Shown one piece after another: positions 1 to 23,906 of a DNA stretch of 64,000 nucleotides. How positions within the stretch are numbered: the stretch's first letter is position 1; each line of letters opens with the position of its first letter. The notes under the pieces were generated by a model. The model worked only from the letters and a program-made list of their open reading frames with translations, had not been told where the DNA came from and did no database searches. Position numbers and translations under genes: made by a program. This DNA comes from Escherichia coli (lineage in GTDB: Bacteria; Pseudomonadota; Gammaproteobacteria; Enterobacterales; Enterobacteriaceae). Where the stretch lies: assembly GCF_050320075.1 (NCBI RefSeq), contig NZ_CP190018.1; one strand, given 5' to 3'.

Positions 1-1553
1 AACGCAACAACAGCCCCTGTTTGCCTGTCAACAACCTGTGCGCTCAGGACAGCGATATCATCACTTCCATCTTCGTTAACGATGCGCACTTCACGTTCTG
101 AACCGTACACTTCACGCGCCATTGACAGCCATACTTCACCAGCGCGTTTAAGACTTTTCGCCATATTGTCCAGATAGATAAACGAAGCCATATCTGCTCT
201 GTTCATCAAGTTGTTAACCGTTTCCTGAGCAATATTACTTGGCATCTGCTGCATGGCCTGACTGCCGCCTGTAACCTCCTGAATATCTGCACTGGTTTGC
301 TGTAGTAATGCAGCCAATGCCTGATTCATAACCGCAGGCTGTGTATATCCTGCCGGGGTAGCTCCAGCGATAATGTTGCCAGATTTATCTCTCACTTCGC
401 GCAACGGCAAGAACGCTGGGCGTTTCTTGTTGCGAGCCTCCCAGTGCTTCTCAAGTCCACGAATTTGCTCCATGCCAACTATAGGGATCTGACCGGGGTC
501 TTGCGCTGCAGTATCAGCCAGCATTGAAACCTGAAGGTTGTACAAACGCTGTGGATCCATTGCTTTTGCAATGTGCCCTTCGACACGCTCAATGTCATCA
601 ATGAACCAGCGTTTTCCATAAACCGGGATGAGGGGGATATGCTCACCAGGAATACGTCGAGGTTTCTCAAGGAAACCATCACCATCCACTACGGATACAT
701 ACACACGACGGCGCTTCACTGAGCGCCTTGCCACTTCCTGAAATCCAGATATTGCCAGTTCATCTTCAATATCTTCAACCTGATCACTGTCGTATGTTGC
801 AATCTCTCCAGTGATTGGATGTCGATAACTGATGACGTCAACAGACTCTTTACGAACTTCGTAATACTTCGCTATGTAAATAACATCTGCATCAAACCAG
901 TCATATTCCCAACTGGTCATAGACGTTACATCCAGAGAAGCAGGAGGTTTCTTTCCGTATTCAGCCTCATATTTTTCAGGTGACAACGAATACATGCAGA
1001 ACGCCCACAACGCGTCAGATTTGTCGTACTTCTTAGCGTCAGGGTCAAACCACACAGAGCGCGACGGGTCGTATATTGGTTCAATAGCAATGCGCTGACG
1101 ATCGTCCATGGGGTCGTATTCATTGACCAGCATCGACGTCAAACGGAAGCAACCGAAACCACCAGTAGCAGCGTCGTCAAATGCATTATCGCAAGCCTCA
1201 CCGCCATCAGTTTCTTCGTAGTCAGCACGGAACAGACCATTTAATTTATTGGCTAACTCTTCGCTTGCCTCTCTGTCACCAGGACGAAACTTAACGGTGA
1301 TTCTATTATTGCGGTATTCTGCAATGATGCGGTTAAGTTCAGTTGCTACCTTATTGATTTCAAACTTAGGATACTTCTCGAACTGCTCATCAAGCTTAGT
1401 TCCAGCCGCCGTTGCTCCTTCCCATTGACCTCCGGGGACACGAGCAAACCTCGTAGCTTCAATGCACTTTTCGCGCACTTCCTTCTGTGGAGAATAGGCG
1501 CGGTCAAACCTGAGCATGATCCGCTCATGTTTTTTCTCTAATGTCTCTGCCAT
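1..1553 (-). CDS. Phage portal protein, P22/Sf6-type (partial; C-terminus lies beyond the left edge)
   Basis: Open frame from ATG at 1553 to the window edge with no stop (absent from ORF track because it has no in-window stop); translation begins MAETLEKKHERIMLRFD and continues with portal-like sequence; start is 2 nt after the terL stop. Confidence 0.8.
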   Translation of the reverse strand, partial: MAETLEKKHERIMLRFDRAYSPQKEVREKCIEATRFARVPGGQWEGATAAGTKLDEQFEKYPKFEINKVATELNRIIAEYRNNRITVKFRPGDREASEELANKLNGLFRADYEETDGGEACDNAFDDAATGGFGCFRLTSMLVNEYDPMDDRQRIAIEPIYDPSRSVWFDPDAKKYDKSDALWAFCMYSLSPEKYEAEYGKKPPASLDVTSMTSWEYDWFDADVIYIAKYYEVRKESVDVISYRHPITGEIATYDSDQVEDIEDELAISGFQEVARRSVKRRRVYVSVVDGDGFLEKPRRIPGEHIPLIPVYGKRWFIDDIERVEGHIAKAMDPQRLYNLQVSMLADTAAQDPGQIPIVGMEQIRGLEKHWEARNKKRPAFLPLREVRDKSGNIIAGATPAGYTQPAVMNQALAALLQQTSADIQEVTGGSQAMQQMPSNIAQETVNNLMNRADMASFIYLDNMAKSLKRAGEVWLSMAREVYGSEREVRIVNEDGSDDIAVLSAQVVDRQTGAVVA

Positions 1554-1555
1554 GT

Positions 1556-2968
1556 TTACCAACCGGAGGATGAGGGAACGTATATTTCTGTTTCTTCGCG
1601 GACCAATGCCGGGCAATGCATACACATCATCAGCGCATCAGCCAGGTTAGGAGATGGAATACCGAGCTTCTGCTTCATTTCGACCTTAGTCATTAGCTCA
1701 AGCTTCCCGTTGTTATTGAATTTGCGCTGAATCTGCGTCAGTTCTGCAAACAGCTTCTCCAGCATCTTCTCGCCTATCGCTTCTTTGTCGAAGCTCAGCA
1801 TGTCGTCGGGGTCTGCATACTCACCGTGGACAACCGCCCGATATGTCAGATACAGCCTGTCAGCCAGCGCGTAATAGAATTGCGCTCGCTTATTGCGGAA
1901 TACATCGCCAATAGTGCGAACGTTGTCGCCCTGTACGACTTCATCAGCCCATGCTCCGGCCTGATAAGGCCCATCTTCATCGAATGGCGATTCGCTGCCC
2001 TTGAACATCGTGGCGGTAATTTTCTTGCCGGAGAATGCTTCCGTTGTCTGTCTGCGTAGCCCTGCACCGACACCATCGCCATCCCACAGGTAATGGTCAG
2101 CGCCGTCTTCAATCGCCAGCGAAGTAGCCCAGTCAGCACCCTCGTTGATGTCCATCAGCAGACCTTCGGCAATGCGCTTAACCACCGAACCGTGACGCGA
2201 TGCGTAACCTTTAGCATCTGGCCCTGTATCTGATGGATCATGTGCAGAGACAACAGCGCCTTTCGCTTTCCATCCGAGTTTCTTGTGCGCATCGGTTGCG
2301 GCTTCAAGCCATTCACGTTTGATGATTGCCATATCACTTGCGCTTACTGGCTCACCAAGCCAGATGTGACGATACAGTGTCGGGTTTCTGCGTTTACACT
2401 CTTCCATCTCCAGACGGAGAACTTCAGGAAAGTGCGGGTTGTCGGTGTAGTTCACCGTCAGCAGGCAAATATCATCTGGAGGATTTATGACGAATCGCTG
2501 ATAGGTATCGTCGAGAATGTTTTTCGGGTTAAAGCTCACCCATATTTCGGAAAACGGCTTGCGGATGGTTGGTATCAGGATATCCCATGATTCCTTCGTT
2601 ACCGCTTCCGCTTCCTCCACCCAGCAAATATCAATACCTTCTAGCGATTTAATCTTCGTCGGGTTGTTTTTGATGCCGTAGAACATGAATTCAGCATTCG
2701 TTCCGAGATGACGAATCATGGAACGCTGAATTTCAAACTCAGCCGAATAGCCTTCCCGCTCTATGGTGTCTTCAAGCAACCGGATTACCGAATCGCTGAT
2801 ACTGTTTTGCAGTTCACGAGCGCAGAGAATACGCACTGGCTGCCGACGCGCCGCTTCAACAAGCAGCCTCGCAATTGCCCATGACTTACCGCTACCTCGA
2901 CCGCCTTTGGCGACTTTGTAGCGATGCGCCTCAATGAACGGTTCAAAGATAGGATTAATCGAGGTCAT
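1556..2968 (-). CDS. Terminase large subunit (headful/pac type)
   Basis: 470 aa ORF with Walker A KGGRGSGKS near the N-terminus; matches Sf6/P22-family TerL from memory; sits between terS and portal. Confidence 0.9.
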   Translation of the reverse strand: MTSINPIFEPFIEAHRYKVAKGGRGSGKSWAIARLLVEAARRQPVRILCARELQNSISDSVIRLLEDTIEREGYSAEFEIQRSMIRHLGTNAEFMFYGIKNNPTKIKSLEGIDICWVEEAEAVTKESWDILIPTIRKPFSEIWVSFNPKNILDDTYQRFVINPPDDICLLTVNYTDNPHFPEVLRLEMEECKRRNPTLYRHIWLGEPVSASDMAIIKREWLEAATDAHKKLGWKAKGAVVSAHDPSDTGPDAKGYASRHGSVVKRIAEGLLMDINEGADWATSLAIEDGADHYLWDGDGVGAGLRRQTTEAFSGKKITATMFKGSESPFDEDGPYQAGAWADEVVQGDNVRTIGDVFRNKRAQFYYALADRLYLTYRAVVHGEYADPDDMLSFDKEAIGEKMLEKLFAELTQIQRKFNNNGKLELMTKVEMKQKLGIPSPNLADALMMCMHCPALVREETEIYVPSSSGW

Positions 2969-3405
2969 TTTCCGAATAGAGTGCTCATCGGTGATGTTTC
3001 AATCTGAATTGCGCCGCCGTCTTTGCCTGTTAGCTCGTGATCAACCTTGTCGCGCCATTTATCCTTCTGTCGGTTCTTAAGCCAGAAAATGGCAGCGGTT
3101 GTATCAGGCGGGTAATACTTCTCAAGCGGAGTTTCGACAATTCTGTTTTCAATAACACGAATATCGATATCTGGAGCCACGAAGCCCATAGCGCGTTGAT
3201 AAAGACGATCACTAACTTCTGCATCAGCGACGGCCTTACCCTTTTTTATGGACTCCGAAAACTTAGGATAATCAAGCTTCCACTTGTTAATAGTTGACTC
3301 ACTGACTTCAAAGAAATCAGCAAGTTCTGCATCGGTGTAGCCCAGCAAGCACAGTTTGCGTGCCTGTTCGGCATACGCCTCTTGATACTTTGTTGGGCGC
3401 GCCAT
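2965..3405 (-). CDS. Terminase small subunit
   Basis: 146 aa ORF overlapping the terL start by 4 nt; HTH-like N-terminus; position immediately upstream of terL. Confidence 0.7.
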   Translation of the reverse strand: MARPTKYQEAYAEQARKLCLLGYTDAELADFFEVSESTINKWKLDYPKFSESIKKGKAVADAEVSDRLYQRAMGFVAPDIDIRVIENRIVETPLEKYYPPDTTAAIFWLKNRQKDKWRDKVDHELTGKDGGAIQIETSPMSTLFGK

Positions 3406-3407: not shown

Positions 3408-3650
3408 TTATGCTCCGGTGGTGAACAGGTCTAACGCTTCCTTCGATTTACGCACCGCTTCGATAGTGCGGGTCGTGATATCCGAATTAGCGCCGCCTGA
3501 CTGGAAGTGAATTTTGAATAGCTCAAGCTTCAGCTCGTCAGTGCCAATGAACTGAAATGCTTCTTCTGCGGCTGCGTTCTGGTTCATGACCAGCTTGTAA
3601 ATCTCTAACTGGAATTTCTGTTCTTCAGTCATGGGAATAATCTCTGCCAT
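3408..3650 (-). CDS. Hypothetical phage protein upstream of terS
   Basis: 80 aa ORF, same strand, ends 3 nt before the terS start; no recognisable motif. Confidence 0.4.
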   Translation of the reverse strand: MAEIIPMTEEQKFQLEIYKLVMNQNAAAEEAFQFIGTDELKLELFKIHFQSGGANSDITTRTIEAVRKSKEALDLFTTGA

Positions 3651-3890: not shown

Positions 3891-4421
3891 ATGGAAGTCG
3901 AAAAAATGCTGGTCAAGGACCGGAAGTGTGGCTCTTGCTCAGTTTGCTGTGTTTCTTTGGCAATAGATGAGCCCGAATTGAAAAAAAAGCATGCGGTACC
4001 GTGTACCTATCTCAGGCCTCAGGGTGGTTGCTCGATCTATGCTGATCGACCGTCATTGTGCAAAACATGGCACTGCGGATGGCGGATGATGCCTTTCATG
4101 GGGCCTGCGTTAAGACCAGATCGGTCCAATCTCCTAGTGCGCTTCACGGGAGAATGTTGGATTTTCGGTGATGCTGACGACCAAAGGGAATCTGCATTAA
4201 TGAATAATGATACTTTAAACGCAATGAGCGCTCTGGTCTCGCGTAATATGAAAGTTTCAGTATCAGTTCCAACTAAGCCGGGTTATTGCGACGCTGAACA
4301 TGTCATCAATGATGATATTATGGAGGCGGTAAAAGAACGGTCTTTGTCAAAAGTTAAAGAAATAATTTGGACAGTAATTTGCCGGTGCAAAGTCTCCGCG
4401 ACCAACCCGCGAAAGCAATAA
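3891..4421 (+). CDS. YkgJ-like CxxCxxCC cysteine-cluster protein (putative Zn/Fe-binding), moron on the strand opposite the late genes
   Basis: ORF 3849-4421; preferred start is ATG 3891 preceded by GAGGTG; motif CGSCSVCC plus further Cys residues; opposite orientation to the flanking late operon. Confidence 0.6.
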   Translation: MEVEKMLVKDRKCGSCSVCCVSLAIDEPELKKKHAVPCTYLRPQGGCSIYADRPSLCKTWHCGWRMMPFMGPALRPDRSNLLVRFTGECWIFGDADDQRESALMNNDTLNAMSALVSRNMKVSVSVPTKPGYCDAEHVINDDIMEAVKERSLSKVKEIIWTVICRCKVSATNPRKQ

Positions 4422-4430
4422 ATTAAGCTG

Positions 4431-4460
4431 AACGCCAAATTTATCCGAAATTTGGCGTTA
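4431..4460. terminator. Bidirectional terminator-like hairpin between convergent genes
   Basis: Perfect 12-bp inverted repeat AACGCCAAATTT / AAATTTGGCGTT directly after the stop of 3891-4421 (+) and the stop of 4458-4646 (-). Confidence 0.4.
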
Positions 4461-4871: not shown

Positions 4872-5309
4872 TCATCGAAGGCATTGCGTCCTGATGTACT
4901 CCTGCAGGTAGTTAACCTGCGCGGTTATCCTGTCGATTCCACTTCGGAGACGGTAATAATTGAGTTCAGCATCTGCTGTAAGTCTTGGGCTTTCTCCATC
5001 GCCCATGCTGCTGGCTCCGGTCGTTGACTTTGCACAGGTGGCGGCGACTTGCAGGCGTTTACGACCAGCAGAAACATCAGCACGGAGACTTTCGATAGTC
5101 GCGTTAGCATCAGCAAGCTCCTTTGTGTATCTGGCGTCGAGTTCTGCTACATCATGTTGCCGCTTCTGCATATCAGCGATAATAGATGTGGCTTTATCGC
5201 GCTGTTCTTTATAGGTAATGGCGTTATCACGGTAATGATTAACAGCCCATGACAGGCAGACGATGATGCAGATAACCAGAGCGGAGATAATCGCGGTTAC
5301 TCTGCTCAT
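4872..5309 (-). CDS. Rz: Rz i-spanin (lysis)
   Basis: 145 aa with N-terminal TM segment; lambda Rz-like; overlaps the R stop. Confidence 0.9.
4925..5116 (-). CDS. Rz1: Rz1 o-spanin lipoprotein embedded in the +1 frame of Rz
   Basis: 63 aa ORF nested inside Rz; lipobox-like VVNAC followed by a Pro-rich stretch, as in lambda Rz1. Confidence 0.7.
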
Positions 5310-5782
5310 ACCTCAATCTCTCTGACCGTTCCGCCAGCCTCTTTGAATTTTGCAATCAGGCTGTCAGCCTTATGCTCGAACTGACCATAACCAGCCCCCG
5401 GCAGTGAAGCCCAGATATTGCTGCAACGGTCGATAGCCTGACGGATATCACCGCGATCAATCATCGGCAAAGCGCCACGCTCCTTAATCTGCTGCAGCGC
5501 AACAGCGTCCTGGCTTTTGGGAGAGAAGTCTTTCAGTCCAAGCTGCTTGCGGTAAGCATCCCACCAACGGGAAAGAAGCTGGTAACGTCCGGCTGCTGTT
5601 GATTTGAGTTTTGGGTTTAGCGTGACAAGTTTGCGAGGGTGATCGGAGTAATCAGTGAATAGCTCTCCTCCTACAATGACGTCATAACCATGATTTCTGG
5701 TTTTCTGACGTCCGTTATCAGTTCCCTCTGACCACGCCAGCATATCGAGGAACGCCTTACGTTGATTATTGATTTCCACCAT
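5306..5782 (-). CDS. R: Endolysin, lambda R-type lytic transglycosylase
   Basis: 158 aa, [26 protein letters not shown]..., near-identical to lambda R from memory. Confidence 0.95.
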
Positions 5783-6089
5783 CTTCTACTCCGGCTTTTT
5801 TAGCAGCGAAGCGTTTGAGAAGCGAACCAATCGAGTCAGTACCGATGTAGCCGATGAACACGCTCGTTATATAAGCGAGATTGCTACTTAGTCCGGCGAA
5901 GTCGAGAAGGTCACGAATGAACCAGGCGATAATGGCGCACATCGTTGCGTCGATTACTGTTTTTGTAAACGCACCGCCATTATATCTGCCGCGAAGGTAC
6001 GCCATTGCAAACGCAAGGATTGCCCCGATGCCTTGTTCCTTTGCCGCGAGAATGGCGGCTAACAGGTCATGTTTTTCTGGCATCTTCAT
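5766..6089 (-). CDS. S: Holin, lambda S-type (dual-start MKMPEK)
   Basis: 107 aa, [35 protein letters not shown]..., lambda S-like. Confidence 0.95.
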
Positions 6090-6482
6090 GTCTTACCCCC
6101 AATAAGGGGATTTGCTCTATTTAATTAGGAATAAGGTCGATTACTGATAGAACAAATCCAGGCTACTGTGTTTAGTAATCAGATTTGTTCGTGACCGATA
6201 TGCACGGGCAAAACGGCAGGAGGTTGTTAGCGCGACCTCCTGCCACCCGCTTTCACGAAGATCATGTGTAGAAGGCCGCAGCGTAACTATCACTGATGAA
6301 TTCAGGATAGCCAGTGGCTACGGCTCAGTTTTGGTTGTGCTGTTGCTGGGCGGCGATGACGCCTGTACGCATTTGGTGATCCGGTTCTGCTTCCGGCATT
6401 CGCTTAATTCAGCACAACGATAAGAGCACTCGGTGCATTTAAGCCAAGCCCCATAAGGGAGAATGCTCTTACCTGTTGCACA

Positions 6483-6550
6483 GGTATAAAAAATCCCGAA
6501 ACCGTTATGCAGGCTCTAACTATTACCTGCGAACTGTTTCGGGATTGCAT
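6483..6550 (-). terminator. tR' late terminator (lambda-type)
   Basis: Minus-strand hairpin ATCCCGAAAC...GGTTTCGGGAT followed by TTTTTTATA; matches remembered lambda tR' sequence. Confidence 0.7.
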
Positions 6551-6679
6551 TTTGCAGACCTCTCAGCCTGCGATGGTTGGAGTTCCAGACGATACGTCGA
6601 AGTGACCAACTAGGCGGAATCGGTAGTAAGCGCCGCCTCTTTTTATCTCACTACCACAACGAGCGAATTAACCCATCGT
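6487..6679 (-). ncRNA. Lambda 6S-like short late transcript (pR' to tR')
   Basis: Interval between the pR' start region and tR'; ends are approximate. Confidence 0.45.
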
Positions 6680-6686
6680 TGGGTCA

Positions 6687-6715
6687 AATTTACCCAAGTT
6701 TATTCAAAAAGTCAA
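6687..6715 (-). promoter_or_regulatory. pR' late promoter (-35 TTGACT, 17-bp spacer, -10 TAAATT) with adjacent qut region
   Basis: Minus-strand TTGACT at 6715-6710 and TAAATT at 6692-6687; sequence tracks the lambda pR'/qut region. Confidence 0.65.
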
Positions 6716-6757
6716 TATTATGCCGTTAATATGTTGCCATCCGTGGCAATCATGCTG

Positions 6758-7381
6758 CTAACGTGTGACCGTATTCAAAATGTTGTCTGCGATTGACTCT
6801 TCTTTGTGGCATTGCACCACCAGAGCGTCATACAGCGGCTTAACAGTGCGTGACCAGGTGGGTTGAGTAAGGTTTGGGATTAGCATCGTTACAGCGCGAT
6901 ATGCGGCGCTTGCTGGCATTCTTGAATAGCCGACACCTTTGCATCTTCCGCATTCTTTCTCAACAACTATCCCCCACAGCTCTGTTTTTGATATATCAAC
7001 CGCACGGCCTGTACCGTGGCAATCTCTGCATCTTGCGCCCGGCGTCGCGGCACTACGGCAATAATCCGCATAAGCGAATGTTGCGAGCACTTGCAGTACC
7101 TTTGCCTTAGTATTTCCTTCAAGCTTTGCAACGCCACGGTATTTCCCCGATACCTTGTGTGCAAACTGCATCAGATAGTTGATAGCCTTTTGTTTGTCGT
7201 TCTGGCTGAGTTCGTGCTTACCGCAAAATGCAGCCATTCCGAATCCGGCTTGTGATTGCGCCATCCCCATAGCAGCCATCACATCAGTACCGGAAAGAGA
7301 GTCAGAAGCCGTAGCCCGTGGTGAGTCACTCATCATCGGGCTTTTTGGCGAATGAAATTTAGCTACGCTTTCGAGTCTCAT
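6758..7381 (-). CDS. Q: Late antiterminator Q (lambda type)
   Basis: 207 aa, MRLESVAKFHSPKSPMMSDSPRATASDSLSGTDVMAAMGMAQSQAGFG..., lambda Q-like including zinc-finger Cys residues. Confidence 0.95.
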   Translation of the reverse strand: MRLESVAKFHSPKSPMMSDSPRATASDSLSGTDVMAAMGMAQSQAGFGMAAFCGKHELSQNDKQKAINYLMQFAHKVSGKYRGVAKLEGNTKAKVLQVLATFAYADYCRSAATPGARCRDCHGTGRAVDISKTELWGIVVEKECGRCKGVGYSRMPASAAYRAVTMLIPNLTQPTWSRTVKPLYDALVVQCHKEESIADNILNTVTR

Positions 7382-7566
7382 GGCCTTCCCCTTTTGCCCT
7401 GCTTGACCATCAGGACGCCGTTAACTATTACGTGACGCTCGCCTTTGCTGTCTCGGTTGTACTTGAGCACTGTTCCTCTTGCGCAGGAAAGCATCCTTGC
7501 CACTTCGGTCTGATTGCCTCGTGTCTGGATAAGAAGCTCTGGTATCGTTTGAATTGTGGCGTTCAT
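7378..7566 (-). CDS. ninH: NinH-like small DNA-binding protein
   Basis: 62 aa; GNQTEVARMLSCARGTVLKY resembles lambda NinH; overlaps the Q start. Confidence 0.7.
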   Translation of the reverse strand: MNATIQTIPELLIQTRGNQTEVARMLSCARGTVLKYNRDSKGERHVIVNGVLMVKQGKRGRP

Positions 7567-16439: not shown

Positions 16440-17045
16440 ATGAGCAAAGAATTTTACGCAAGACTGGCAGCTATTCAGGAGAATCTGAACGCGCCAAAGA
16501 ATCAGTACAACTCATTCGGTAAATATAAATACAGAAGCTGCGAAGACATTCTTGAAGGCGTTAAGCCGTTACTGAATGGCCTGTTTTTATCAATCAGCGA
16601 TGAAGTTGTGTTGATTGGTGATCGGTATTATGTGAAAGCCACGGCAACTATTACCGATGGCGAAAACAGTCATACGGCAACCGCACTAGCACGAGAGGAA
16701 GAAAGCAAGAAAGGAATGGATTCTGCACAAGTTACGGGGGCTACAAGCTCTTATGCACGCAAGTATTGCCTCAATGGTTTGTTCGGCATTGATGATGCGA
16801 AAGATGCAGATACCGACGAGCATAAACATCAGCAGAACGCAGCAGCAAAGCAATCAAAACCATCACCTACACCTGAACAGGTTCTAAAAGCATTCACTGA
16901 CGCAGCAATGCAGAAAAACACCGTAGAAGAGCTTAAACAGGCGTTCGCCAAAGCGTGGAAGATGCTCGAAGGGACGCCGGAGCAGCACAAAGCGCAGGAC
17001 GTTTACAACATCAGACGAGGCGAATTAGAAGGGGCAACTGCTTAA
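16440..17045 (+). CDS. erf: Erf single-strand annealing protein (P22 Erf family)
   Basis: MSKEFYARLAAIQENLNAPKNQYNSFGKYKYRSCEDILEGVKPLL... matches P22 Erf from memory. Confidence 0.9.
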   Translation: MSKEFYARLAAIQENLNAPKNQYNSFGKYKYRSCEDILEGVKPLLNGLFLSISDEVVLIGDRYYVKATATITDGENSHTATALAREEESKKGMDSAQVTGATSSYARKYCLNGLFGIDDAKDADTDEHKHQQNAAAKQSKPSPTPEQVLKAFTDAAMQKNTVEELKQAFAKAWKMLEGTPEQHKAQDVYNIRRGELEGATA

Positions 17046-17428
17046 TGGCACATTCGATTACAGTAAGACTAAACAAGCCCGCAAGAGAGTTTCAGGCCGG
17101 GGAAAATATCGGATTCAACATCCGTGCTGGCGTTCAGTATTACGATCGCCAGACAAAAAAGAAAGAATGGACAAACTACAGCGCCGTTGTATTTGCCAAG
17201 CCGGGGGCGCAAGCGGATTACTACCGTAGTGTTCTTGTTGAAGGTGGCATTGTTGAAGTTACCGGAGAAAACATCAGGGTTGATGTTTATCAGGGGCAAA
17301 ATGGTCAATCAATCACTCTTGAATTACTGAATGCAAAGATTGGATTTGCAGCTTCAGGAAACAGCCAACAGCAGCAAAGTAGCAATCATCAAAATAATCC
17401 TGAATACGACGATTCAATTCCCTTCTAA
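17045..17428 (+). CDS. SSB-like single-stranded DNA-binding protein
   Basis: 127 aa from ATG 17045 (TAATG overlap with erf stop); ends with the SSB-type acidic tail ...EYDDSIPF. Confidence 0.75.
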   Translation: MAHSITVRLNKPAREFQAGENIGFNIRAGVQYYDRQTKKKEWTNYSAVVFAKPGAQADYYRSVLVEGGIVEVTGENIRVDVYQGQNGQSITLELLNAKIGFAASGNSQQQQSSNHQNNPEYDDSIPF

Positions 17429-17451: not shown

Positions 17452-17748
17452 ATGCCAGCGCCTCTGTATGGTGCGGATGACCCGCGCCGCTGTTCCGGCA
17501 ATTCCGTATCGGAGGTGCTGGATAAATTCAGAAAAAACTACGATCGGATAATGTCGCTACCGCAGGAAACGAAAAAGGAAAAGGAATTTCGCCACTGTAT
17601 ATGGCTTGCAGAGAAAGAAGAACGCGAGCTAATTTACCAGACATCAATCCGACCATTCCGCAAAGCCACATATACCCACTTCCCTGAATATATCGACCCG
17701 CGCCTGCGTAATTACCGCTCACGCTATGGCGCTATCAGTAATGACTGA
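17452..17748 (+). CDS. Hypothetical early accessory protein
   Basis: 98 aa ORF in the early-left operon. Confidence 0.5.
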   Translation: MPAPLYGADDPRRCSGNSVSEVLDKFRKNYDRIMSLPQETKKEKEFRHCIWLAEKEERELIYQTSIRPFRKATYTHFPEYIDPRLRNYRSRYGAISND

Positions 17749-17758: not shown

Positions 17759-18049
17759 ATGAAAACAATGAAGATAAACATCGACCTCGGAAAATACGTT
17801 ATTACCGGAACCAAACACGATCTGATTCTTAGTGAAAGAGGAATTATCAAAGAAGGCGAGAATGCAGGGAAAGAAACACTAAGCCGTATCGGTTATTACA
17901 GCAAGTTTGAGCATCTGGTTAAAGAATTATGCAACCGTGAAATCCTGTTATCTCAGGCGCAGACGCTACAGGATATTCAGCAACATATCGAGAATTTAGG
18001 TGTGTCACTTAGCATGGCTATTGACCAGTTCGTGGAGAGTAAATCATGA
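17759..18049 (+). CDS. Hypothetical early accessory protein (start uncertain)
   Basis: Internal Met of ORF 17726-18049. Confidence 0.4.
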
Positions 18050-18206
18050 GAGGACTTGCATACAATCCCGGCATTCTTCCGGCAGAAATGATTATTCGCC
18101 AACGCGTAAAGCCAATGCCATCGAGAGAGGAATTGCTCAAGAGAAATTCTTTTCCGTCAGTAAATCAAAACAAATATCTGAATGCGATGTGGCGGAGTGG
18201 GAAGAA

Positions 18207-18647
18207 ATGAAACAAATGTCACTAATTGAGATGGATGGTTTTCTGAAAGGTAAATGCATCCCAAGTGATTTAAAGGTTAACGAAACAAACGCTGAATATC
18301 TTGTCCGTAAGTTCGGTGAACTTGAATCAAAACTCAACGAGCAGCGTGAGTATTACGAAGGTGTTATCTCGGATGGGAGTAAGCGTATTGCAGAACTGGA
18401 AAGCAACGAAGTCCATGAAGACGGAAATCAGTTTCTTGTTGTTCGCCACCCCGGGAAATCTCCGGTAATCAAGCACTGCACTGGTGACCTGGAAGAGTTT
18501 CTGCGGAAGTTAATCGAACAAGACCCGTTAGTAACTATCGACATCATTACGCATCGCTATTACGGGATTGGCGGTCAATGGGTTCAGGATGCAGTTGAGT
18601 ATCTGCATATGATGTCTGAAGCTGGCATTCGCATCAAAGGAGAGTGA
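18207..18647 (+). CDS. Hypothetical early accessory protein (start uncertain; ORF track gives 18000)
   Basis: In-frame Met after GGAG; shares a ...SPVI... stretch with the next gene. Confidence 0.4.
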
Positions 18648-18648
18648 T

Positions 18649-19728
18649 ATGAGCACTATCACTAAAGAACGTATCGAATTGTTCATTAAATCCCCGCTTG
18701 AAAACGGGCTTACCCGTGGCGAACAAATGGAACTGGCACGAATTGCACTGGCATCACTGGAACGCGAACAGATTCGCCACGAGCATGCCAAATGGTCTGA
18801 CTCCACATTTGGCTGCGTTGGCCCCATTGGTCCACTGAAACACCTCTCAAAAGAGGCACTGGAAGCCGCAGCCGAACCAGACGATCTTAGCGAGTGGGCT
18901 GATATGCAGTTTCTGTTGTGGGATGCACAGCGCCGTGCTGGCATCAGCGATGCTGAAATTACCGCTGCTATGGAAGATAAATTGAAGATCAACATGGAGC
19001 GCCAGTGGCCTGAACCAAAAGATGGTGAGCCTCGCTTGCACATTAAAGAACCCGGCAACTCTCCGGTAATTCCGGATGGTTTATCCACGGTATGCGCTGA
19101 GGCTTATCAGGTTGTAGGAGTTATGGCAGATGCGCTTGGTGTATTCGGTGATGCAGCAGTACAGAAAGTTCTGGATAACCTGTCACAGCAAAAACTTGTT
19201 CACAGAGATGTGCTGCCGTTCTCGCTTCCGGTGACTCCGGATGGTTGGATAAGCTGTAGTGAGCGAATGCCTGTAATTGGCGAGCTAAATTGGAGAACTA
19301 GTTTTCCTTTACTGGTTACGTGTGAGATCGGCGTTATACCTGCTTATTACGGCTTTGTGAGCGTTAATGGTGATAGGCATTATGGCTTTATGGAGAGTCT
19401 TAAATACGGAGACGATAACGGCAACCATCCTCAAACTAATGAATATGGTCTGATTAGCAATGTCACACACTGGATGCCACTACCAGAACGCCGCAGGAGT
19501 CGAACAGTGAATAATGCAGAGTTATTTCAGAAAATTTCGGCTCTCGCGACTGAATGCCACGCTATAGCATCTGAGCTTGATGTTGGCGATGAACGAACCG
19601 AGATGTTCGAAATATACAGTGTGCTGCGCAATCTCTGTCGGCGTGGCTACGCCACTCAAGTAGGGCGAATGACTAACCCACTACTCTCATTCTGTGATGA
19701 GGATGACTCGGATGAGGATGACGAATGA
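18649..19728 (+). CDS. Two-domain early accessory protein with DUF551-like C-terminal region
   Basis: 359 aa; W-x-S-x-S-E-R-x-P motif (WISCSERMP); acidic C-terminus. Confidence 0.55.
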   Translation: MSTITKERIELFIKSPLENGLTRGEQMELARIALASLEREQIRHEHAKWSDSTFGCVGPIGPLKHLSKEALEAAAEPDDLSEWADMQFLLWDAQRRAGISDAEITAAMEDKLKINMERQWPEPKDGEPRLHIKEPGNSPVIPDGLSTVCAEAYQVVGVMADALGVFGDAAVQKVLDNLSQQKLVHRDVLPFSLPVTPDGWISCSERMPVIGELNWRTSFPLLVTCEIGVIPAYYGFVSVNGDRHYGFMESLKYGDDNGNHPQTNEYGLISNVTHWMPLPERRRSRTVNNAELFQKISALATECHAIASELDVGDERTEMFEIYSVLRNLCRRGYATQVGRMTNPLLSFCDEDDSDEDDE

Positions 19729-20108
19729 TGCATAAATCAGTAGCCGGTGAGTTTCAGAAGGAAGTCGATAATACCACTGATCTATTGGACGATATTTTAA
19801 GCATTCTCGCGCTGCTTGAGGCTGGCGATTGGTCAGAACATTGCACTAAAACAGAGCTAGGCGGTCGGCTTGAAAGAGAGATTACACGACTGATTAGCGA
19901 TGCCCAAAATGATTTGTCACCTGAGCATCTCCCCTGCGATGTAGTTCTTGTGCCAGGGATGAGGATACACGAAGGCGTCAGAACGAAAACATTATTAACC
20001 GCATTACAGAGGAGAGCCGAACTAAGCTCGCGGATAAAGTTGATGCCATCCAAAATATTTGATGTCGTCAAATTTACGCCATCGCAACATACTGAGAGAG
20101 ATAAATGA
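19725..20108 (+). CDS. Hypothetical early accessory protein
   Basis: 127 aa; 4-nt overlaps with neighbours. Confidence 0.5.
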   Translation: MMHKSVAGEFQKEVDNTTDLLDDILSILALLEAGDWSEHCTKTELGGRLEREITRLISDAQNDLSPEHLPCDVVLVPGMRIHEGVRTKTLLTALQRRAELSSRIKLMPSKIFDVVKFTPSQHTERDK

Positions 20109-20731
20109 GCACGGTAGCGAACGATCTCACAGAAGATATTCTCAATGAAATTATTGCTGGTGCAAATACCTCGCTTGAGCAACTTCTTGCGTTAGCACTG
20201 AGAGCCGAACGTCGAGACAGAAATCGTTTTTATGAGCGATTACCAGGGAAGCGACCAGATAGATCGGATGAAGAAGGTTGCGATATAGACTACATGGAGC
20301 CTTCAGAGATTTATCAACTTGGTAAAGATGACGGCTGGAACGCTTATCACGATGCTGTGATGAAGTTGGATGAAAAAGTTAAACCTCTTTCTCGACCGGT
20401 AGATCACGGTTTCCGCGATAACTGCGAATGCTCTAGTTGCCAGACCACGACCCGTATTTGTTCCGAATTGACAGATAAGTCCAGCCTAATCTACGAAGTT
20501 AATGTAGGCGGTAATACATGGGTCGAATGCACAAGAGCTGCATACGTAAGAGCAAAAGACAAGGGTGAATTAACCAGAGTTGTTACCAATCACCCAAATA
20601 ATGAGCTTAAAGATCACCAGATTCGAGAACTGGTGAACGAGTTGAGAGATATTGCGGTTCAGTACCACGGAACGCAGCAATTGCGGGAGAAGATTGCCAG
20701 AGCAGTGAACAACTCAGTCCGTAAAAAATAA
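20105..20731 (+). CDS. Hypothetical early accessory protein (Cys cluster CECSSCQ)
   Basis: 208 aa ORF; last gene before the ORF-free gap. Confidence 0.55.
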   Translation: MSTVANDLTEDILNEIIAGANTSLEQLLALALRAERRDRNRFYERLPGKRPDRSDEEGCDIDYMEPSEIYQLGKDDGWNAYHDAVMKLDEKVKPLSRPVDHGFRDNCECSSCQTTTRICSELTDKSSLIYEVNVGGNTWVECTRAAYVRAKDKGELTRVVTNHPNNELKDHQIRELVNELRDIAVQYHGTQQLREKIARAVNNSVRKK

Positions 20732-20748
20732 GCAATAGTACGATAAAG

Positions 20749-20773
20749 AGGCCCCATGCTCTTGATGGGGCCT
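20749..20773 (-). terminator. Intrinsic terminator for the small peptide gene
   Basis: 9-bp stem AGGCCCCAT/ATGGGGCCT with 7-nt loop, 14 nt after the peptide stop; on the minus strand followed by CTCTTTATCG...TTATTTTTTAC. Confidence 0.45.
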
Positions 20774-20786
20774 GTAGCAACTAGCG

Positions 20787-20870
20787 TTATGGACGCTGGT
20801 TTACGTACTCAATGATCGCTTTGATAATCGCGAACATCGGCGGCACGATTTTGAACAGTAAGTTAACCAT
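20787..20870 (-). CDS. Candidate type I toxin: 27-aa hydrophobic peptide MVNLLFKIVPPMFAIIKAIIEYVNQRP
   Basis: ATG 20870 preceded by GAGG at -8; stop 20787-20789; terminator follows; not in ORF track (below size cutoff). Confidence 0.4.
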   Translation of the reverse strand: MVNLLFKIVPPMFAIIKAIIEYVNQRP

Positions 20871-21117
20871 AACAGGCCTCACTTAGTTTTATCGCGCCTA
20901 GCTGCAAATACCTTTGGGCTTGCCTTTGCAGTTGCAATATCTGTAGTCGCCAGATACTTACGGCACGATTTCGAGTTAAGGTAAGGTTTTAGAGTCACCA
21001 AAAACCTGGACTTAAATCTTCTTTGAGAACAACGATGTTTAGTAAATGGTCATTATTACCTGGTATGACCACTCAACGTTTCTTGATGAATCCAGTACAT
21101 TCGGTTAATCTTAATTC

Positions 21118-21201
21118 AGTCGCCAGATACTTATGGCTCAGGAACAGAGCCGCAAACTCTGTTTCCTTTTAAAAAGCCCAGCCTAGTCAACTGGGCTTTT
21201 T
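21118..21201 (+). ncRNA. Candidate antitoxin sRNA with 5' seed complementary to the peptide mRNA leader
   Basis: Promoter-like TTGATG (21083-21088), 17 bp, TAATCT (21106-21111); 5' AGUCGCCAGAUACUUAUGG pairs with the leader copy at 20945-20963; internal hairpin; intrinsic terminator AGCCCAG...CTGGGCT + T-run at 21171-21201. Confidence 0.4.
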
Positions 21202-21496
21202 AATGTCTATTTTTAACCCAATGAACCTTCAATACCGTAACATCAGTGTCTTGCGAATTAAGATAGTGTGTATAGGTTATGCATGCAAGTACATAACTCT
21301 GTGGATAACTCAGGAAGGAAAAAGTAGCTCCCGCGCAATTTAGGCCAGACAAGGCTTTCGCAAAAGTCAACAGAGAGAAAAAATTTGTTAAAAATAACGT
21401 TTGTTGGAATTGTATATATTTATGCCTTTCAATAGTTAGCATCTTATTAACATCTTTTTTAAGAGATAGAGTTCAAAAATATATAGCTTCAACATA

Positions 21497-21516
21497 TACT
21501 GTATGTGTATACAGTA
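21497..21516 (+). promoter_or_regulatory. LexA (SOS) box TACTGTATGTGTATACAGTA upstream of the humD-like gene
   Basis: Perfect CTGT-N8-ACAG palindrome about 17 bp upstream of ATG 21533. Confidence 0.75.
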
Positions 21517-21532
21517 TTAAGAGGCGAGTATT

Positions 21533-21922
21533 ATGGGCTTCCCTTCTCCTGCGGCGGATTATGCTGAGAGCCGTATTTCTCTTGATCAGCAGATAATTAG
21601 ACATCCTTCAGCGACCTACTTCATGAGGGCAGCTGATAGTCATCATCGTGAGGGAATATTACAGGGTGCATTGCTGGTGGTCGATTCCTCACTTACCCCG
21701 GTTGATGGTTCTCTGCTTGTATGCGCTCTGGATGGGGAATATCGCGTAAAAAGATACCGGAAGTATCCACGTCAGCATCTGGAGGATTTAAGAACCGGTA
21801 AGAAGGAAGCATTGCCAAAGGATGACGATGGATGCACGGGCAGCAATGCCGTGTTTGGTGTGATCACTCACATTATCAACGACGCAAGAAGTGGCGAGTT
21901 TGATGATTGTCCCGTGATGTAG
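21533..21922 (+). CDS. UmuD/HumD-like S24 peptidase (translesion synthesis accessory)
   Basis: 129 aa; UmuD-like sequence; SOS box upstream; no umuC partner in the window. Confidence 0.75.
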   Translation: MGFPSPAADYAESRISLDQQIIRHPSATYFMRAADSHHREGILQGALLVVDSSLTPVDGSLLVCALDGEYRVKRYRKYPRQHLEDLRTGKKEALPKDDDGCTGSNAVFGVITHIINDARSGEFDDCPVM

Positions 21923-22227
21923 GAGAACTGATTAGGCGGTGCAATGCACCGCCTTTTTATCACACTGCGCGGAATGCGATTTCGCCAGGTATTACTTCAC
22001 CTTGCCAATACATTTGGACAGCAGACTTTCGGCGATGCGTTGCACTTGTTGAGCAGATTCCAGAAATCAGAGATTCATTCGACAAGGTTGCAAAGCGCGT
22101 TCCGGCATTCAAAGGAATCCTCAACGAATGGGATTCCCTCGTTGATCTGTTGAAGTCTGAAATGAAGATACACGGAAACAAAGCACCAGAGACTTACAGA
22201 AGAATTAGCGAGTTACGCAAGGACTAA
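21907..22227 (+). CDS. Hypothetical protein downstream of the humD-like gene
   Basis: 106 aa ORF overlapping the humD end; no recognisable motif. Confidence 0.35.
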   Translation: MSRDVGELIRRCNAPPFYHTARNAISPGITSPCQYIWTADFRRCVALVEQIPEIRDSFDKVAKRVPAFKGILNEWDSLVDLLKSEMKIHGNKAPETYRRISELRKD

Positions 22228-22317: not shown

Positions 22318-22665
22318 GTGGAAGAAGAAATCTTCACTCGTGAAGAGGCAGCGTCGTATCTGAAGGTAGACAAAGGCACTATCACGCAGTGGATACGAAG
22401 TGGACGACTTCAGGCCGCAAAGATAAATCCAGATAAACCTAAAAGCCCATATCGCATTTGCAAGTCAGACTGCATTGCGGCGCTTAAGTCTGTGAGACAC
22501 AATAGCGCGGTGAATGCGGTTGATGTGCAGGAGGTTAAAGCATGTCAATCAAACTACGCGGTGGCACGTGGCACTGCGATTTCGTCGCGCCAGATGGATC
22601 AAGAGTTAGACGCTCTCTTGAAACATCGGACAAAAGGCAAGCGCAAGAACTTCACGATCGTCTGA
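22318..22665 (+). CDS. xis: Excisionase (Xis), P22-like; 3' end uncertain
   Basis: Immediately upstream of int; ORF overlaps the int start by about 120 nt. Confidence 0.55.
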   Translation: MEEEIFTREEAASYLKVDKGTITQWIRSGRLQAAKINPDKPKSPYRICKSDCIAALKSVRHNSAVNAVDVQEVKACQSNYAVARGTAISSRQMDQELDALLKHRTKGKRKNFTIV

Positions 22666-23702
22666 AAGCAGAAGCGTGGAGAGTAAAAAATCTCGGGGAA
22701 TCACCGAAAAAGCTATTCAAGGAAGCCTGCATACGGTGGCTGCGTGAGAAATCGGATAAGAAGTCCATTGATGATGACAAGAGCATTATATCGTTCTGGA
22801 TGTTGCACTTCAGAGAAGCCATTCTCTCTGACATAACAACAGAAAAAATAATGGAGGCGGTAGATGGGATGGAAAACCGCCGCCATCGCCTGAACTGGGA
22901 GATGAGCCGGGACAGGTGTTTGCGACTTGGCAATCCGGTGCCGGAGTATAAACCAAAGCTTGCAAGCAAAGGAACGAAGACGAGGCATCTGGCAATACTT
23001 CGCGCCATTCTCAATATGGCTGTTGAATGGGGATGGCTTGACAGGGCACCCAAAATATCAACACCACGCGTTAAGAATGGACGCATCAGATGGCTTACAG
23101 AGGAGGAATCGAAGCGCCTGTTTGCAGAAATTGCTCCTCACTTCTTCCCTGTGGTCATGTTTGCAATCACGACAGGCCTTCGCCGTTCCAACGTTACAGA
23201 CCTTGAGTGGTCACAGGTCGATCTGGATAAGAAAATGGCATGGATACACCCTGATGAAACAAAAGCTGGCAATGCGATCGGAGTTCCTCTTAACGAAACC
23301 GCATGCCAGATATTAAGAAAACAGCAGGGGCTCCATAAGAGATGGGTATTTGTCCACACCAAACCTGCCTACCGAAGCGACGGAACAAAAACAGCAGCGG
23401 TAAGGAAGATGAGAACCGACAGCAACAAGGCATGGAAGGGAGCGTTAAAGCGGGCAGGCATTAGTAACTTCCGCTTCCATGATCTGAGGCATACCTGGGC
23501 AAGCTGGCTGGTTCAGTCCGGTGTCTCTCTTCTTGCACTTAAAGAGATGGGAGGATGGGAAACTCTCGAAATGGTTCAAAGATACGCCCACCTTTCAGCC
23601 GGGCATCTCACCGAGCACGCAAGCAAAATCGATGCGATTATAAGTCGCAATGGCACAAATACGGCACAAGAGGAGAACGTGGTGTATTTAAATATGGGGT
23701 AA
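22542..23702 (+). CDS. int: Tyrosine integrase, P22-type, thrW-specific
   Basis: 386 aa; aligns from the N-terminus with remembered P22 Int; catalytic HDLRHTWASWLVQ...YAHL motif; adjacent to tRNA-Thr. Confidence 0.9.
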   Translation: MSIKLRGGTWHCDFVAPDGSRVRRSLETSDKRQAQELHDRLKAEAWRVKNLGESPKKLFKEACIRWLREKSDKKSIDDDKSIISFWMLHFREAILSDITTEKIMEAVDGMENRRHRLNWEMSRDRCLRLGNPVPEYKPKLASKGTKTRHLAILRAILNMAVEWGWLDRAPKISTPRVKNGRIRWLTEEESKRLFAEIAPHFFPVVMFAITTGLRRSNVTDLEWSQVDLDKKMAWIHPDETKAGNAIGVPLNETACQILRKQQGLHKRWVFVHTKPAYRSDGTKTAAVRKMRTDSNKAWKGALKRAGISNFRFHDLRHTWASWLVQSGVSLLALKEMGGWETLEMVQRYAHLSAGHLTEHASKIDAIISRNGTNTAQEENVVYLNMG

Positions 23703-23716
23703 CTACTTGATTTAAA

Positions 23717-23792
23717 TGGTGCCGATAATAGGAGTCGAACCTACGACCTTCGCATTACGAATGCGCTGCTCTACCAACTGAGCTATATCGGC
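23717..23792 (-). tRNA. thrW: tRNA-Thr (anticodon CGU)
   Basis: 76-nt minus-strand sequence GCCGATATAGCTCAGTTGGTAGAGCAGCGCATTCGTAATGCG...CGGCACCA with cloverleaf. Confidence 0.95.
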
Positions 23793-23906
23793 CCTGAAAG
23801 GACATGTTCACGAACGTGAATCACGGTGGACAAGGTTAAAACTAACCGGGCGATGCGTCAATGGCCTTGTGAATCAAATGGCTACTTTTGCATCACCCGG
23901 TTTTAT

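Follow-up and report, generated by a model that had tools for sequence, protein, structure and literature searches.

A mosaic P22-like podovirus prophage integrated at the thrW tRNA gene of Escherichia coli

Positions 1–23762 of the window, the whole 64,000-nucleotide stretch of E. coli contig NZ_CP190018.1 that we analysed, make up the right-hand ~24 kb of a 38.9-kb lambdoid podovirus prophage, namely its early, lysis and packaging half. The same prophage is present at 100% identity in three complete E. coli genomes, in which its full extent and gene map were read; the gene content to the left of the window was taken from the RefSeq annotation of these identical copies. We conclude that the element is very probably a complete temperate P22-like prophage (Lederbergvirus-like, with an Sf6-type virion) that integrated site-specifically into thrW. 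All of its modules are already known from lambda, Sf6, CUS-3, HK620 and mEp043, and what is new is their combination. A preliminary description had read the region as a mosaic lambdoid prophage of mixed-source modules at thrW, and every element of that reading held when examined; it had placed the prophage at 1–23795, with correct coordinates, the exact end being 23762. The three identical copies could stem from clonal descent rather than recent infection.

The boundaries and integration functions at the right end are as follows.

23716–23762: attR, a 47-bp exact direct repeat comprising thrW nucleotides 31–76 plus 1 nt
23717–23792, minus strand: thrW, tRNA-Thr(CGT), intact (ARAGORN; Rfam 71.8 bits)
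22548–23702, plus strand: tyrosine integrase of the P22 family, thrW-specific, 384 aa (PF00589, E=1e-35)
22318–22665, plus strand: excisionase, HTH_17 (PF12728; 98% identical to mEp043 and 42% to P22 Xis)

The two ends of the prophage carry exact 47-bp direct repeats that correspond to the 3′ part of thrW. As had been anticipated, the att core overlaps the tRNA gene (the repeat includes its 3′ 46 nt), and both the duplicated segment at the far end and the structural genes beyond the left edge were located in the identical genomes: attL lies 15.15 kb left of the window, and an identical 47-bp copy is found 38.9 kb leftward of attR in NZ_CP123240. A simulated prophage-free junction, in which the DNA between the 47-bp repeats was deleted, was found continuous in 120 genomes, and the insertion is therefore precise. 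P22 carries 46 of the 47 bp of the att block and mEp043 all 47, in each case beside int. The integrase, 99% identical to mEp043 Int and 55% to P22 Int, ends 15 nt from the 3′ end of the tRNA, and xis overlaps int as it does in P22. The catalytic domain, the int-adjacent att block duplicating the 3′ part of thrW and the flanking repeats, the traits of a P22-family thrW integrase, are all present; thrW is the integration site reported for P22, ST64T and ST104 (PMC2629481). Such an integrase would have recombined the tRNA gene with a phage attP in which the 3′-terminal 46 nt of thrW are duplicated, regenerating an intact thrW at attR and leaving the 47-bp partial copy at attL.

In this lineage thrW is a hotspot occupied by more than one element, here the P22-like phage together with a P4-like satellite. 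The satellite, which has its own integrase, lies in tandem to the left of attL and wholly outside the repeats; a further integrase remnant is also found left of attL, and integrase remnants occur among the neighbouring thrW-linked elements. A 176-bp scar resembling a lambda attP arm and a fragment of a tail-fibre gene lie near attL. Tandem occupancy of this kind raises the question of whether two independent elements have been misread as one, with int-xis-att, for example, belonging to a separate thrW island. We regard this as very improbable: exact deletion between the repeats recreates the junction that is uninterrupted in the 120 genomes, int-xis-att is contiguous with the ea and early-left region exactly as in P22 and mEp043, and the P4-like element stays entirely outside the repeats.

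The left end of the window carries the start of the packaging and virion genes.

1–1553, minus strand: portal, first 517 of 708 codons, the remainder lying left of the window (PF16510, P22_portal, E=2e-141)
1556–2968, minus strand: terminase large subunit, Sf6 (headful) type (PF04466, Terminase_3, E=4e-41; 100% aa identity to Sf6 gp2)
2965–3405, minus strand: terminase small subunit, CUS-3 type (phrog_309, E=1e-67)
3408–3650, minus strand: DUF2560 gene, HK620 hkbM / P22 orf80 (100% aa to HK620 and Sf6, 99% to P22; RefSeq annotation)

The portal is 99% identical at the amino acid level to those of Sf6 and HK620 and 32% to that of P22, TerL has no tblastn match in P22 or lambda, and terS is 98–99.5% identical in nucleotide sequence to CUS-3 terS, with likeness to Sf6 and HK620 confined to its C-terminal 21%. 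The expected P22-type packaging was thus right as to the P22/Sf6 family of terL and portal but not as to P22's own type, TerL and portal being of Sf6 type and TerS of CUS-3 type. Lambda cosN is absent, in line with the prediction that no cos site would be present, as is any homology to the lambda cos region. Together with the identity of TerL to Sf6 gp2, these observations suggest that packaging of the DNA would be headful and would start at a pac site rather than at cos.

The virion cluster is collinear (terS-terL-portal-scaffold-coat-gp4-gp10-gp26-gp14-gp7-gp20-gp16, then tailspike). The 12 virion ORFs that lie left of the window are all open, and they are 97–99% identical to those of Sf6 except for the variable tailspike, gp16 and gp20. 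The 639-aa tailspike, annotated as a phage head-binding domain-containing protein, retains the conserved N-terminal head-binding domain (18–29% of the protein, 67–74% identical to Sf6, HK620 and P22), and its remainder is unrelated. The immI region keeps arc, without ant or mnt, as in HK620 and Sf6. Because the siphovirus mEp043 is among the best phage matches of the early half (97% identity over 46% of the query) and the late-control and lysis genes are of lambda type, one could suppose a lambda- or mEp043-like siphovirus prophage with a small P22/Sf6-like insert. The complete podovirus virion cluster in Sf6 order, from portal through tailspike, makes this reading almost untenable, as does the absence of tape-measure and major-tail genes between attL and attR in the gene map of the identical prophage; moreover, the packaging and virion region is unmatched in lambda and mEp043.

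To the right of terS and the DUF2560 gene, the P22-like prophage carries a late-control and lysis block of largely lambda type.

7378–9683, minus strand: nin region with ninH, rusA, DUF1364, roi (KilAC antirepressor-like), ninF, ninE and ninB (RefSeq annotation)
6758–7381, minus strand: late antiterminator Q, lambda specificity type (PF03589, E=4e-58; 99% aa to lambda Q)
6090–6757, minus strand: late control region with pR′, qut, 6S leader and tR′ (96% identical to lambda 44495–45200, from the end of Q to the start of S)
5766–6089, minus strand: holin S, lambda type (PF05106, E=3e-30; 98% aa to lambda S)
5306–5782, minus strand: endolysin R, lambda type (99% aa to lambda R)
4872–5309, minus strand: Rz i-spanin with embedded Rz1 (about 4925–5110), Sf6/P22 type (PF03245, E=5e-36)

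Window positions 5061–7391 align with lambda 43875–46235 in one 2365-bp HSP at 93.5% identity. The promoter scan places pR′ (TTGACT-17-TAAATT) with its −35 at 6715–6710 and its −10 at 6692–6687, and tR′ lies at about 6488–6530. The proposed near-identity of Q, pR′, S and R to lambda was borne out, at 98–99% for the proteins and 93.5–96% for the nucleotide sequence of the region; as a description of the lysis genes, lambda type fits S and R but not Rz/Rz1, Rz being 99% identical to Sf6, 90% to P22 and 59% to lambda. The nin region proteins are 95–100% identical to those of HK620. A lambda-specificity Q is common among P22-like phages (PMC2629481). The lambda-type Q would act at pR′/qut/tR′ to allow expression of S, R and Rz/Rz1, and then of TerS, TerL, portal and the Sf6-type virion genes.

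The regulatory circuit follows the lambda order, with divergent cI and cro and their operators, N with nutL and nutR, cII and cIII, and Q with pR′/qut ahead of the lysis genes.

13481–13762, minus strand: cII (PF05269, E=4e-30)
13839–13853, minus strand: nutR boxB, identical to lambda (exact GCCCTGAAAAAGGGC; 0.01 expected by chance)
13879–14094, minus strand: cro (HTH_3), non-lambda (PF01381)
14095–14211: putative OR/pR/pRM interval with AGTAC-N5-GTAnT operator half-site pairs (from sequence)
14212–14865, plus strand: cI repressor, HTH plus S24 autopeptidase with HVQAG cleavage site (PF00717, PF01381)
14940–15020, plus strand: putative OL operators and pL, TTGACT at 14991–14996 and TACTAT at 15014–15019 (from sequence and repeats)
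15075–15089, plus strand: nutL boxB, identical to lambda (exact GCCCTGAAGAAGGGC)
15200–15526, plus strand: antiterminator N, lambda type (PF11438, E=2e-25; 90% aa to lambda N)
16013–16183, plus strand: cIII-like gene (phrog_550, E=1e-22)

The repressor is 71% identical to lambda cI at the amino acid level, with nucleotide homology confined to the C-terminal domain, and its cleavage and catalytic motifs are present. The cro gene is 99% identical in nucleotide sequence to that of vB_EcoP-683R2 and 94% to that of Nil2, and had no match in the comparison with lambda. An inverted repeat in the OR interval also occurs at OL, and the immunity region as a whole is 94–99% identical to the CP-933H/Nil2/vB_EcoP-683R2 type. 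Membership in the lambda immunity group was considered and rejected, as cro lacks a lambda match and the nucleotide similarity of cI to lambda is limited to the C-terminal domain. The "lambda control" of the preliminary description therefore stands for N/nut and Q/qut only; the N-terminal domain of cI, cro and the operators are of another known immunity type. CII boxes occur at the pRE and paQ positions, the former (TTGC-N6-TTGC at 13737–13750, on the strand opposite cII) marking pRE. In the lysogen, a LexA-like cI of non-lambda specificity would shut off pL and pR; SOS induction is expected to provoke cI self-cleavage at the lambda-like Ala-Gly site, after which lambda-type N would act at the lambda-identical nutL and nutR.

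The replication and recombination genes flank this region.

10459–12339, minus strand: bifunctional primase-helicase, Toprim plus DnaB-family ATPase, 626 aa (PF13155, PF13481, PF03796)
12447–13307, minus strand: O-like replication initiator (PF04492, E=1e-37)
16440–17045, plus strand: Erf single-strand annealing protein (PF04404, E=2e-44, 151.6 bits against a cut-off of 25)
17045–17428, plus strand: divergent SSB-like protein, 127 aa (phrog_44, 'single strand DNA binding protein', E=2e-28)
17452–17748, plus strand: Abc2 anti-RecBCD (96% to HK620 and Sf6, 91% to P22; RefSeq name)

The proposal of primase-helicase replication agrees with the 626-aa protein, which combines Toprim_2 and DnaB_C, is 100% identical to mEp043 gp55, has the Walker A motif GVNGHGKT and is homologous to T7 gp4 (E=3e-23, residues 190–538) and to Twinkle. 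Its N-terminal domain differs from the T7 gp4 type: the N-terminal Cys4 zinc-binding domain is absent, Cys does not occur ahead of residue 73, and CxxC pairs are missing from residues 1–190. The O-like initiator is 99% identical to that of mEp043, and the N-terminal 56% of the protein is 49% identical to lambda O; four ~19-bp iterons (TGTCACC-N5-GGTGACA) at 12868–12953, inside its gene, form the ori. The initiator may bind these iterons and recruit the T7-gp4-like primase-helicase, which would take the place of lambda P and of the host's DnaB and DnaG. In the suggested Erf-SSB recombination module, Erf is 99% identical to mEp043 and 76% to P22. The SSB-like gene follows erf, and its product is divergent: it fails the Pfam SSB model, matches no Pfam family at E<=0.01 and has a weak PDB SSB match (7d8j, E=0.047), while its C-terminus is DDSIPF after a Gln/Gly-rich linker (sequence end ...SQQQQSSNHQNNPEYDDSIPF), which fits the D-D-(D/S)-I-P-F tip by which SSBs bind their partners. 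Recombination would be supplied by Erf, the SSB-like protein and Abc2.

The remaining genes are accessory.

3891–4421, plus strand: antisense moron encoding a 176-aa YkgJ-like cysteine-cluster protein (phrog_9155, weak PF03692)
17768–20731, plus strand: ea region with DUF5405, DUF2737, ead/Ea22, a dATP/dGTP pyrophosphohydrolase-DUF551 fusion and two unknown ORFs
21533–21922, plus strand: HumD/UmuD′-like S24 protein (phrog_811, E=3e-54; PF00717)

The moron occupies the slot that lambda uses for bor. Its family has eight invariant Cys, and in at least four different types of lambdoid prophage the gene lies in antisense orientation, with the lysis genes on one side and terS on the other; a search of 50,697 phage records gave no close homologue of the protein, which also has no PADLOC match and no solved-structure match. 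It is conceivable, though rather doubtful, that this is an unrecognised prophage-expressed gene for lysogenic conversion or superinfection exclusion (defence) in the bor slot. The HumD/UmuD′-like protein begins at the UmuD′ N-terminus (MGFPSPAADY) and could influence SOS mutagenesis; it lies in a cassette (19240–22024) that is 97–99% identical to phage records of about 108 kb. The acyltransferase of the prophage and the specificity of its tailspike may also lead to changes in the O-antigen.

Two small pseudogene fragments are annotated in the ea region (18649–18774 and 22021–22227). Along with the scar and tail-fibre fragment by attL and the integrase remnants among neighbouring thrW-linked elements, they could indicate a defective (cryptic) remnant that no longer excises or forms particles and is kept for its lysogenic-conversion genes. 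We consider this unlikely, since the ea region is dispensable, both att copies are exact, and int, xis, cI, cro, N, Q, O, the primase-helicase, the lysis genes, terS, terL, portal and the virion ORFs are all full length and 95–100% identical to genes of plaque-forming phages. The size of 38.9 kb is also typical (Sf6, 39.0 kb; HK620, 38.3 kb). Disrupted essential genes outside the window or a missing second att repeat had been named beforehand as signs of a defective element; the second repeat exists, and the virion ORFs outside the window are all open. The stretch thus appears to hold a standard, probably inducible, temperate phage of Sf6/P22 type that matters little beyond annotation, one more shuffle of lambdoid modules in which a lambda late-control block, Sf6 virion genes and a CUS-3 TerS are joined to the mEp043 modules for replication and integration and to a cassette common to large phage records.

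Alignment to lambda, P22, Sf6 and HK620 gave the module identities that had been proposed for Q, S, R, terL, portal, int and erf. Sf6 shares TerL (100%), portal (99%), scaffold, coat, gp4, gp10, needle, gp14 and gp7 (98–100% aa), S, R, Rz, N and Abc2 (92–99%), the gene order and an O-antigen acyltransferase beside the tailspike, but it integrates at argW by an unrelated integrase, its Q is of phage-21 type and its immunity of 434 type, it pairs O with a DnaB-like helicase, its TerS is of a type of its own, and its tailspike has another receptor domain. P22 shares the thrW site with the same 46-bp att identity block, xis overlapping int, the overall lambdoid podovirus architecture, and Int (55%), Erf (76%), Abc2 (91%), Q (96%), Rz (90%) and gp10/gp14/gp7 (83–93%); it differs in TerL, coat, scaffold and portal, whose sequences are of another type (no match, or 32%), in replicating by means of gp18/gp12 (an O-like initiator with a DnaB-like helicase), and in carrying a complete immI (mnt-arc-ant), the gtrABC conversion genes, a lysozyme-type endolysin and control genes c2/cro/gene 24 of its own.

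The siphovirus mEp043 (Aguilavirus) matches in int-xis-att (97% nt), in erf, the SSB-like gene and abc2 (96%), in cII, O and the primase-helicase (98.7% nt, 99–100% aa) and in Q, S, R and Rz (97%); it differs in its cos packaging and long-tail genes, both lambda/HK97-like, and in the immunity region and the nin genes. Lambda shares the Q-pR′-qut-tR′-S-R block (93.5–96% nt), N (90%), identical nutL and nutR boxB, the cI C-terminal domain, ninE, ninF and the same regulatory logic; the prophage lacks cos, Nu1/A, the lambda head and tail genes, Red and Gam, has the primase-helicase instead of P, and departs from lambda in operator specificity, Rz type and attachment site (thrW versus lambda attB at gal-bio). 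The best overall phage matches are the E. coli K1 phage CUS-3, which has the same TerS type (98–99.5% nt), vB_EcoP-720R6, which aligns over 56% of the window part with 97.4% identity, and vB_EcoP-683R2, which like 720R6 has the same immunity region at 99%. Coverage of the 23.8-kb segment does not exceed 56% for any of the three, and they differ from the prophage in int/att, the ea region and the morons.

The best-supported reading of the prophage is one in which a lambdoid circuit of the standard type, for both lysogeny and lytic growth, would drive an Sf6-type podovirus morphogenetic module, with a P22-family Int/Xis pair that would integrate and excise the element at thrW. The sole tRNA gene in the window, as called by ARAGORN and Rfam, is a tRNA-Thr(CGT) on the minus strand (23717-23792); Rfam at its gathering threshold returned nothing besides this tRNA. 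The RefSeq annotation places proA and proB to its right, and the tRNA is therefore thrW. To the left of thrW, positions 1-23702 are densely packed with phage genes throughout, and the signs of the GC and AT skews both flip near 14 kb, at the point from which transcription diverges. The integrase lies at the edge of thrW:

22548-23702, plus strand, tyrosine integrase of 384 aa (PF00589, E=1e-35), ending 15 nt from the tRNA 3′ end

A preliminary description had placed a mosaic prophage at thrW (1-23795), and the tRNA, the packed phage genes and the adjoining integrase establish that this phage object is real and that its given position is right. A megablast search of 5,426 complete E. coli genomes recovered window positions 1-23795 at 100% identity and as a single piece in three chromosomes:

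YZLc1-3, from chicken
Ec-U3, from human
SB0258h1, from river water

The ends of the element are defined by a 47-bp direct repeat consisting of thrW nucleotides 31-76 plus one base, found at window positions 23716-23762 (attR) and at 3976430-3976476 of NZ_CP123240 (attL), the record used for coordinates left of the window, 15.15 kb to the left of window base 1. These positions give a prophage of 38.9 kb, similar in size to Sf6 (39.0 kb) and HK620 (38.3 kb). A simulated empty site, in which the DNA left of attL was joined to the DNA right of attR through one copy of the repeat, has an uninterrupted, single-piece counterpart in 120 complete genomes (98.5-98.9% identity), showing that the insertion was precise. 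On this test, together with gene content, we rejected a reading to which we give little weight, namely that the region is two elements misread as one. The repeat has counterparts next to int in P22 (46/47 bp) and mEp043 (47/47), and the prophage att is the classical P22-type attP/thrW arrangement. Integration at thrW has been reported for P22, ST64T and ST104 (PMC2629481).

Directly left of attL lies a P4-like satellite (NZ_CP123240 3966000-3976430; positions 1-10430 of L002, our extract from that record), in tandem with the prophage at the partial copy of thrW and carrying an integrase, a HEPN-domain protein, psu, an ogr/delta-like gene, an icd-like gene and a primase. With satellite and prophage both at this site, thrW is therefore occupied in tandem. 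Past the satellite lie part of another related integrase and a degenerate 3′ end of thrW (L002 16-250).

The prophage was compared with lambda, P22, HK620, Sf6 and mEp043 by blastn and tblastn. In the RefSeq annotation, YZLc1-3 continues to the left of the window with the remaining portal gene followed by scaffold and coat, and further left gp4, gp10, the needle (gp26), gp14, gp7, gp20 and gp16, as well as the arc gene, tailspike and acyltransferase. All 12 of the virion ORFs there are open and share 97-99% identity with Sf6 or HK620, save for gp16, gp20 and the tailspike receptor domain, which normally varies. Annotated pseudogenes are limited to a pair of small fragments, both in the dispensable ea region. 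The preliminary description had held that broken essential genes outside the window, or a missing second att repeat, would indicate a defective element; the virion genes proved open and both att copies exact. We give low weight to a cryptic remnant, a reading to which the two pseudogene fragments would belong; the prophage is probably inducible.

The packaging genes are of Sf6 and CUS-3 type. TerL is 100% and portal 99% identical to the Sf6 proteins; the P22 portal, by comparison, is 32% identical and P22 TerL gave no tblastn match. TerS is of the CUS-3 type (98-99.5% nucleotide identity), its likeness to Sf6 TerS being confined to the C-terminal fifth. Because TerL is identical to that of Sf6, packaging is probably headful. 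A search for lambda cosN did not find it, and blastn against lambda found no homology to the cos region.

The acyltransferase and tailspike genes (NZ_CP123240 3977467-3980510) depart from those of the reference phages. The acyltransferase (374 aa) is 24% identical to Sf6 Oac, and the tailspike matches Sf6, HK620 and P22 in its N-terminal head-binding domain only, which suggests a prophage with a different O-antigen specificity and possibly serotype conversion. Between attL and the acyltransferase gene, in the interval at about 3977038-3977399 of NZ_CP123240, a tail-fibre gene fragment adjoins a 176-bp segment that shares 85% identity with the lambda attP arm (lambda 27534-27708) and has the look of a scar left by exchange with a lambda-like phage.

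Late control and most of the lysis genes are of lambda type. Lambda 43875-46235 aligns with window 5061-7391 in one HSP (2365 bp, 93.5%), and the prophage Q, S and R proteins are 99%, 98% and 99% identical to their lambda counterparts. Between the end of Q and the start of S, the sequence shares 96% identity with lambda and takes in pR′ (TTGACT-17-TAAATT), qut, the 6S leader and tR′. Rz/Rz1, by contrast, are 99% identical to Sf6 and 90% to P22 but just 59% to lambda. N is 90% identical to that of lambda, and exact lambda boxB hairpins, of which 0.01 are expected by chance, occupy the nutR (13839-13853) and nutL (15075-15089) positions. CI is 71% identical to lambda CI overall, with nucleotide homology only in the C-terminal autopeptidase domain, where HVQAG, GNSM and FKKL are kept; cro had no match in lambda. 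The immunity region is of a known type, 94-99% identical to vB_EcoP-683R2, Nil2 and CP-933H. AGTAC-N5-GTACT dyads resembling operators are repeated across the OR and OL intervals, overlapping a good pL. Boxes of the form TTGC-N6-TTGC stand at the expected pRE and paQ positions. Across the whole window this CII-box pattern is not above chance (5 found vs 5.35 expected), and the boxes have meaning only in the positions of these two sites. The lambda-like genes might suggest a lambda-like siphovirus, a reading of low weight that gene content and the empty-site test led us to reject. The preferred reading remains a lambdoid circuit joined to an Sf6-type podovirus module.

Two replication proteins are encoded. 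One is an O-like initiator of 286 aa (PF04492), whose gene contains four iterons of ~19 bp (TGTCACC-N5-GGTGACA) at 12868-12953 and whose C-terminal half differs from that of lambda O. The other is a primase-helicase, as the preliminary description had proposed:

10459-12339, minus strand, Toprim_2 and DnaB_C primase-helicase of 626 aa, 100% identical to mEp043 gp55

The claim is supported by these domains, by a Walker A motif and by homology to T7 gp4 (E=3e-23, residues 190-538) and Twinkle, although the protein lacks the N-terminal Cys4 zinc finger of T7 gp4. Its first ~190 residues form a domain of their own, its partner is the lambda O-like initiator, and this N-terminal domain may be an O-contact surface.

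Recombination involves three proteins: Erf, an SSB-like protein and Abc2. Erf (PF04404, E=2e-44) is 76% identical to P22 Erf. The 127-aa protein encoded directly 3′ of erf matches phrog_44 (SSB) at E=2e-28 and combines a linker rich in Gln with DDSIPF, the canonical tip of SSB proteins. The predicted Erf-SSB pair thus holds, although the SSB is a divergent one: Pfam returned nothing for it, the SSB model having failed. As Pfam also gave no match for TerS or R, all three were assigned by PHROGs, sequence motifs and identity to the reference phages.

A further gene, orf176, lies antisense between the lysis genes and terS, the slot in which lambda carries bor:

3891-4421, plus strand, orf176, YkgJ-like protein of 176 aa

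This moron belongs to a small enterobacterial group annotated as "YkgJ family cysteine cluster", with eight invariant Cys, and is accompanied by a bidirectional terminator-like hairpin (~4427-4458). Homologues with 31-55% identity occupy the same slot and antisense orientation in Citrobacter, Klebsiella and metagenomic lambdoid prophages with unrelated terminases. The surrounding region (~3.7-4.7 kb) had no near match in 50,697 phage records, and tblastn of orf176 against all phage records returned only cyanophage hypothetical proteins, matching the Cys-rich N-terminus alone at 35-39%. Foldseek with an AlphaFold2 model (pLDDT 82) gave no match in the PDB at E<=0.001. PADLOC assigned none of ten unassigned or accessory proteins, orf176 included, to a defence-system family; weak DRT RTasDnaG-like (primase-like) matches, to the primase-helicase only, were rejected as due to its Toprim domain.

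In the ea region, window 19240-22024 is 97-99% identical to phage records of ~108 kb (CMS-2020a, Cyrano and PhiR41_1) and includes:

21533-21922, plus strand, S24 protein of 129 aa, starting exactly at the UmuD′ N-terminus (MGFPSPAADY)

To judge from its sequence, this protein is a pre-processed UmuD′/HumD-like form and resembles P1 HumD; a umuC partner is absent near the gene. Also in the ea region, 18826-19728 (plus strand) encodes a 300-aa protein in which a dATP/dGTP pyrophosphohydrolase domain (PF04447) is fused to DUF551; over 80% of its length this protein is 42% identical to P22 EaA.

The rest of the window holds ordinary E. coli core genes, a Flag-2 remnant, hicAB and ISAs1. Pseudogene fragments of prfH and an rtcB-like gene lie at ~31700-32240, and a Flag-2 lateral flagellar remnant (lafU and a truncated flhA-like pseudogene) followed by the hicAB toxin-antitoxin pair at ~34400-38600. 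GC content swings from 0.39-0.41 at 46-48 kb to 0.58-0.66 at 48-52 kb, within an interval (~46000-54000) that contains an ISAs1 transposase, a small ORF and a frameshifted Rhs core gene adjoining vgrG, hcp and a T6SS cluster. We rejected the GC-rich block (48-53 kb) as a foreign island, since it is the Rhs core gene beside vgrG/hcp and the T6SS cluster; such composition is typical of Rhs.

The prophage is already present in RefSeq genomes, where it is annotated automatically. Among 50,697 phage genomes, the widest cover of the 23.8-kb segment by any record is 56%. Nearly all modules of the prophage, however, reach 93% identity or more to a described phage; the moron region and part of the ea region do not. 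What is new in the prophage is the mosaic combination, while the kind to which it belongs is very well known.
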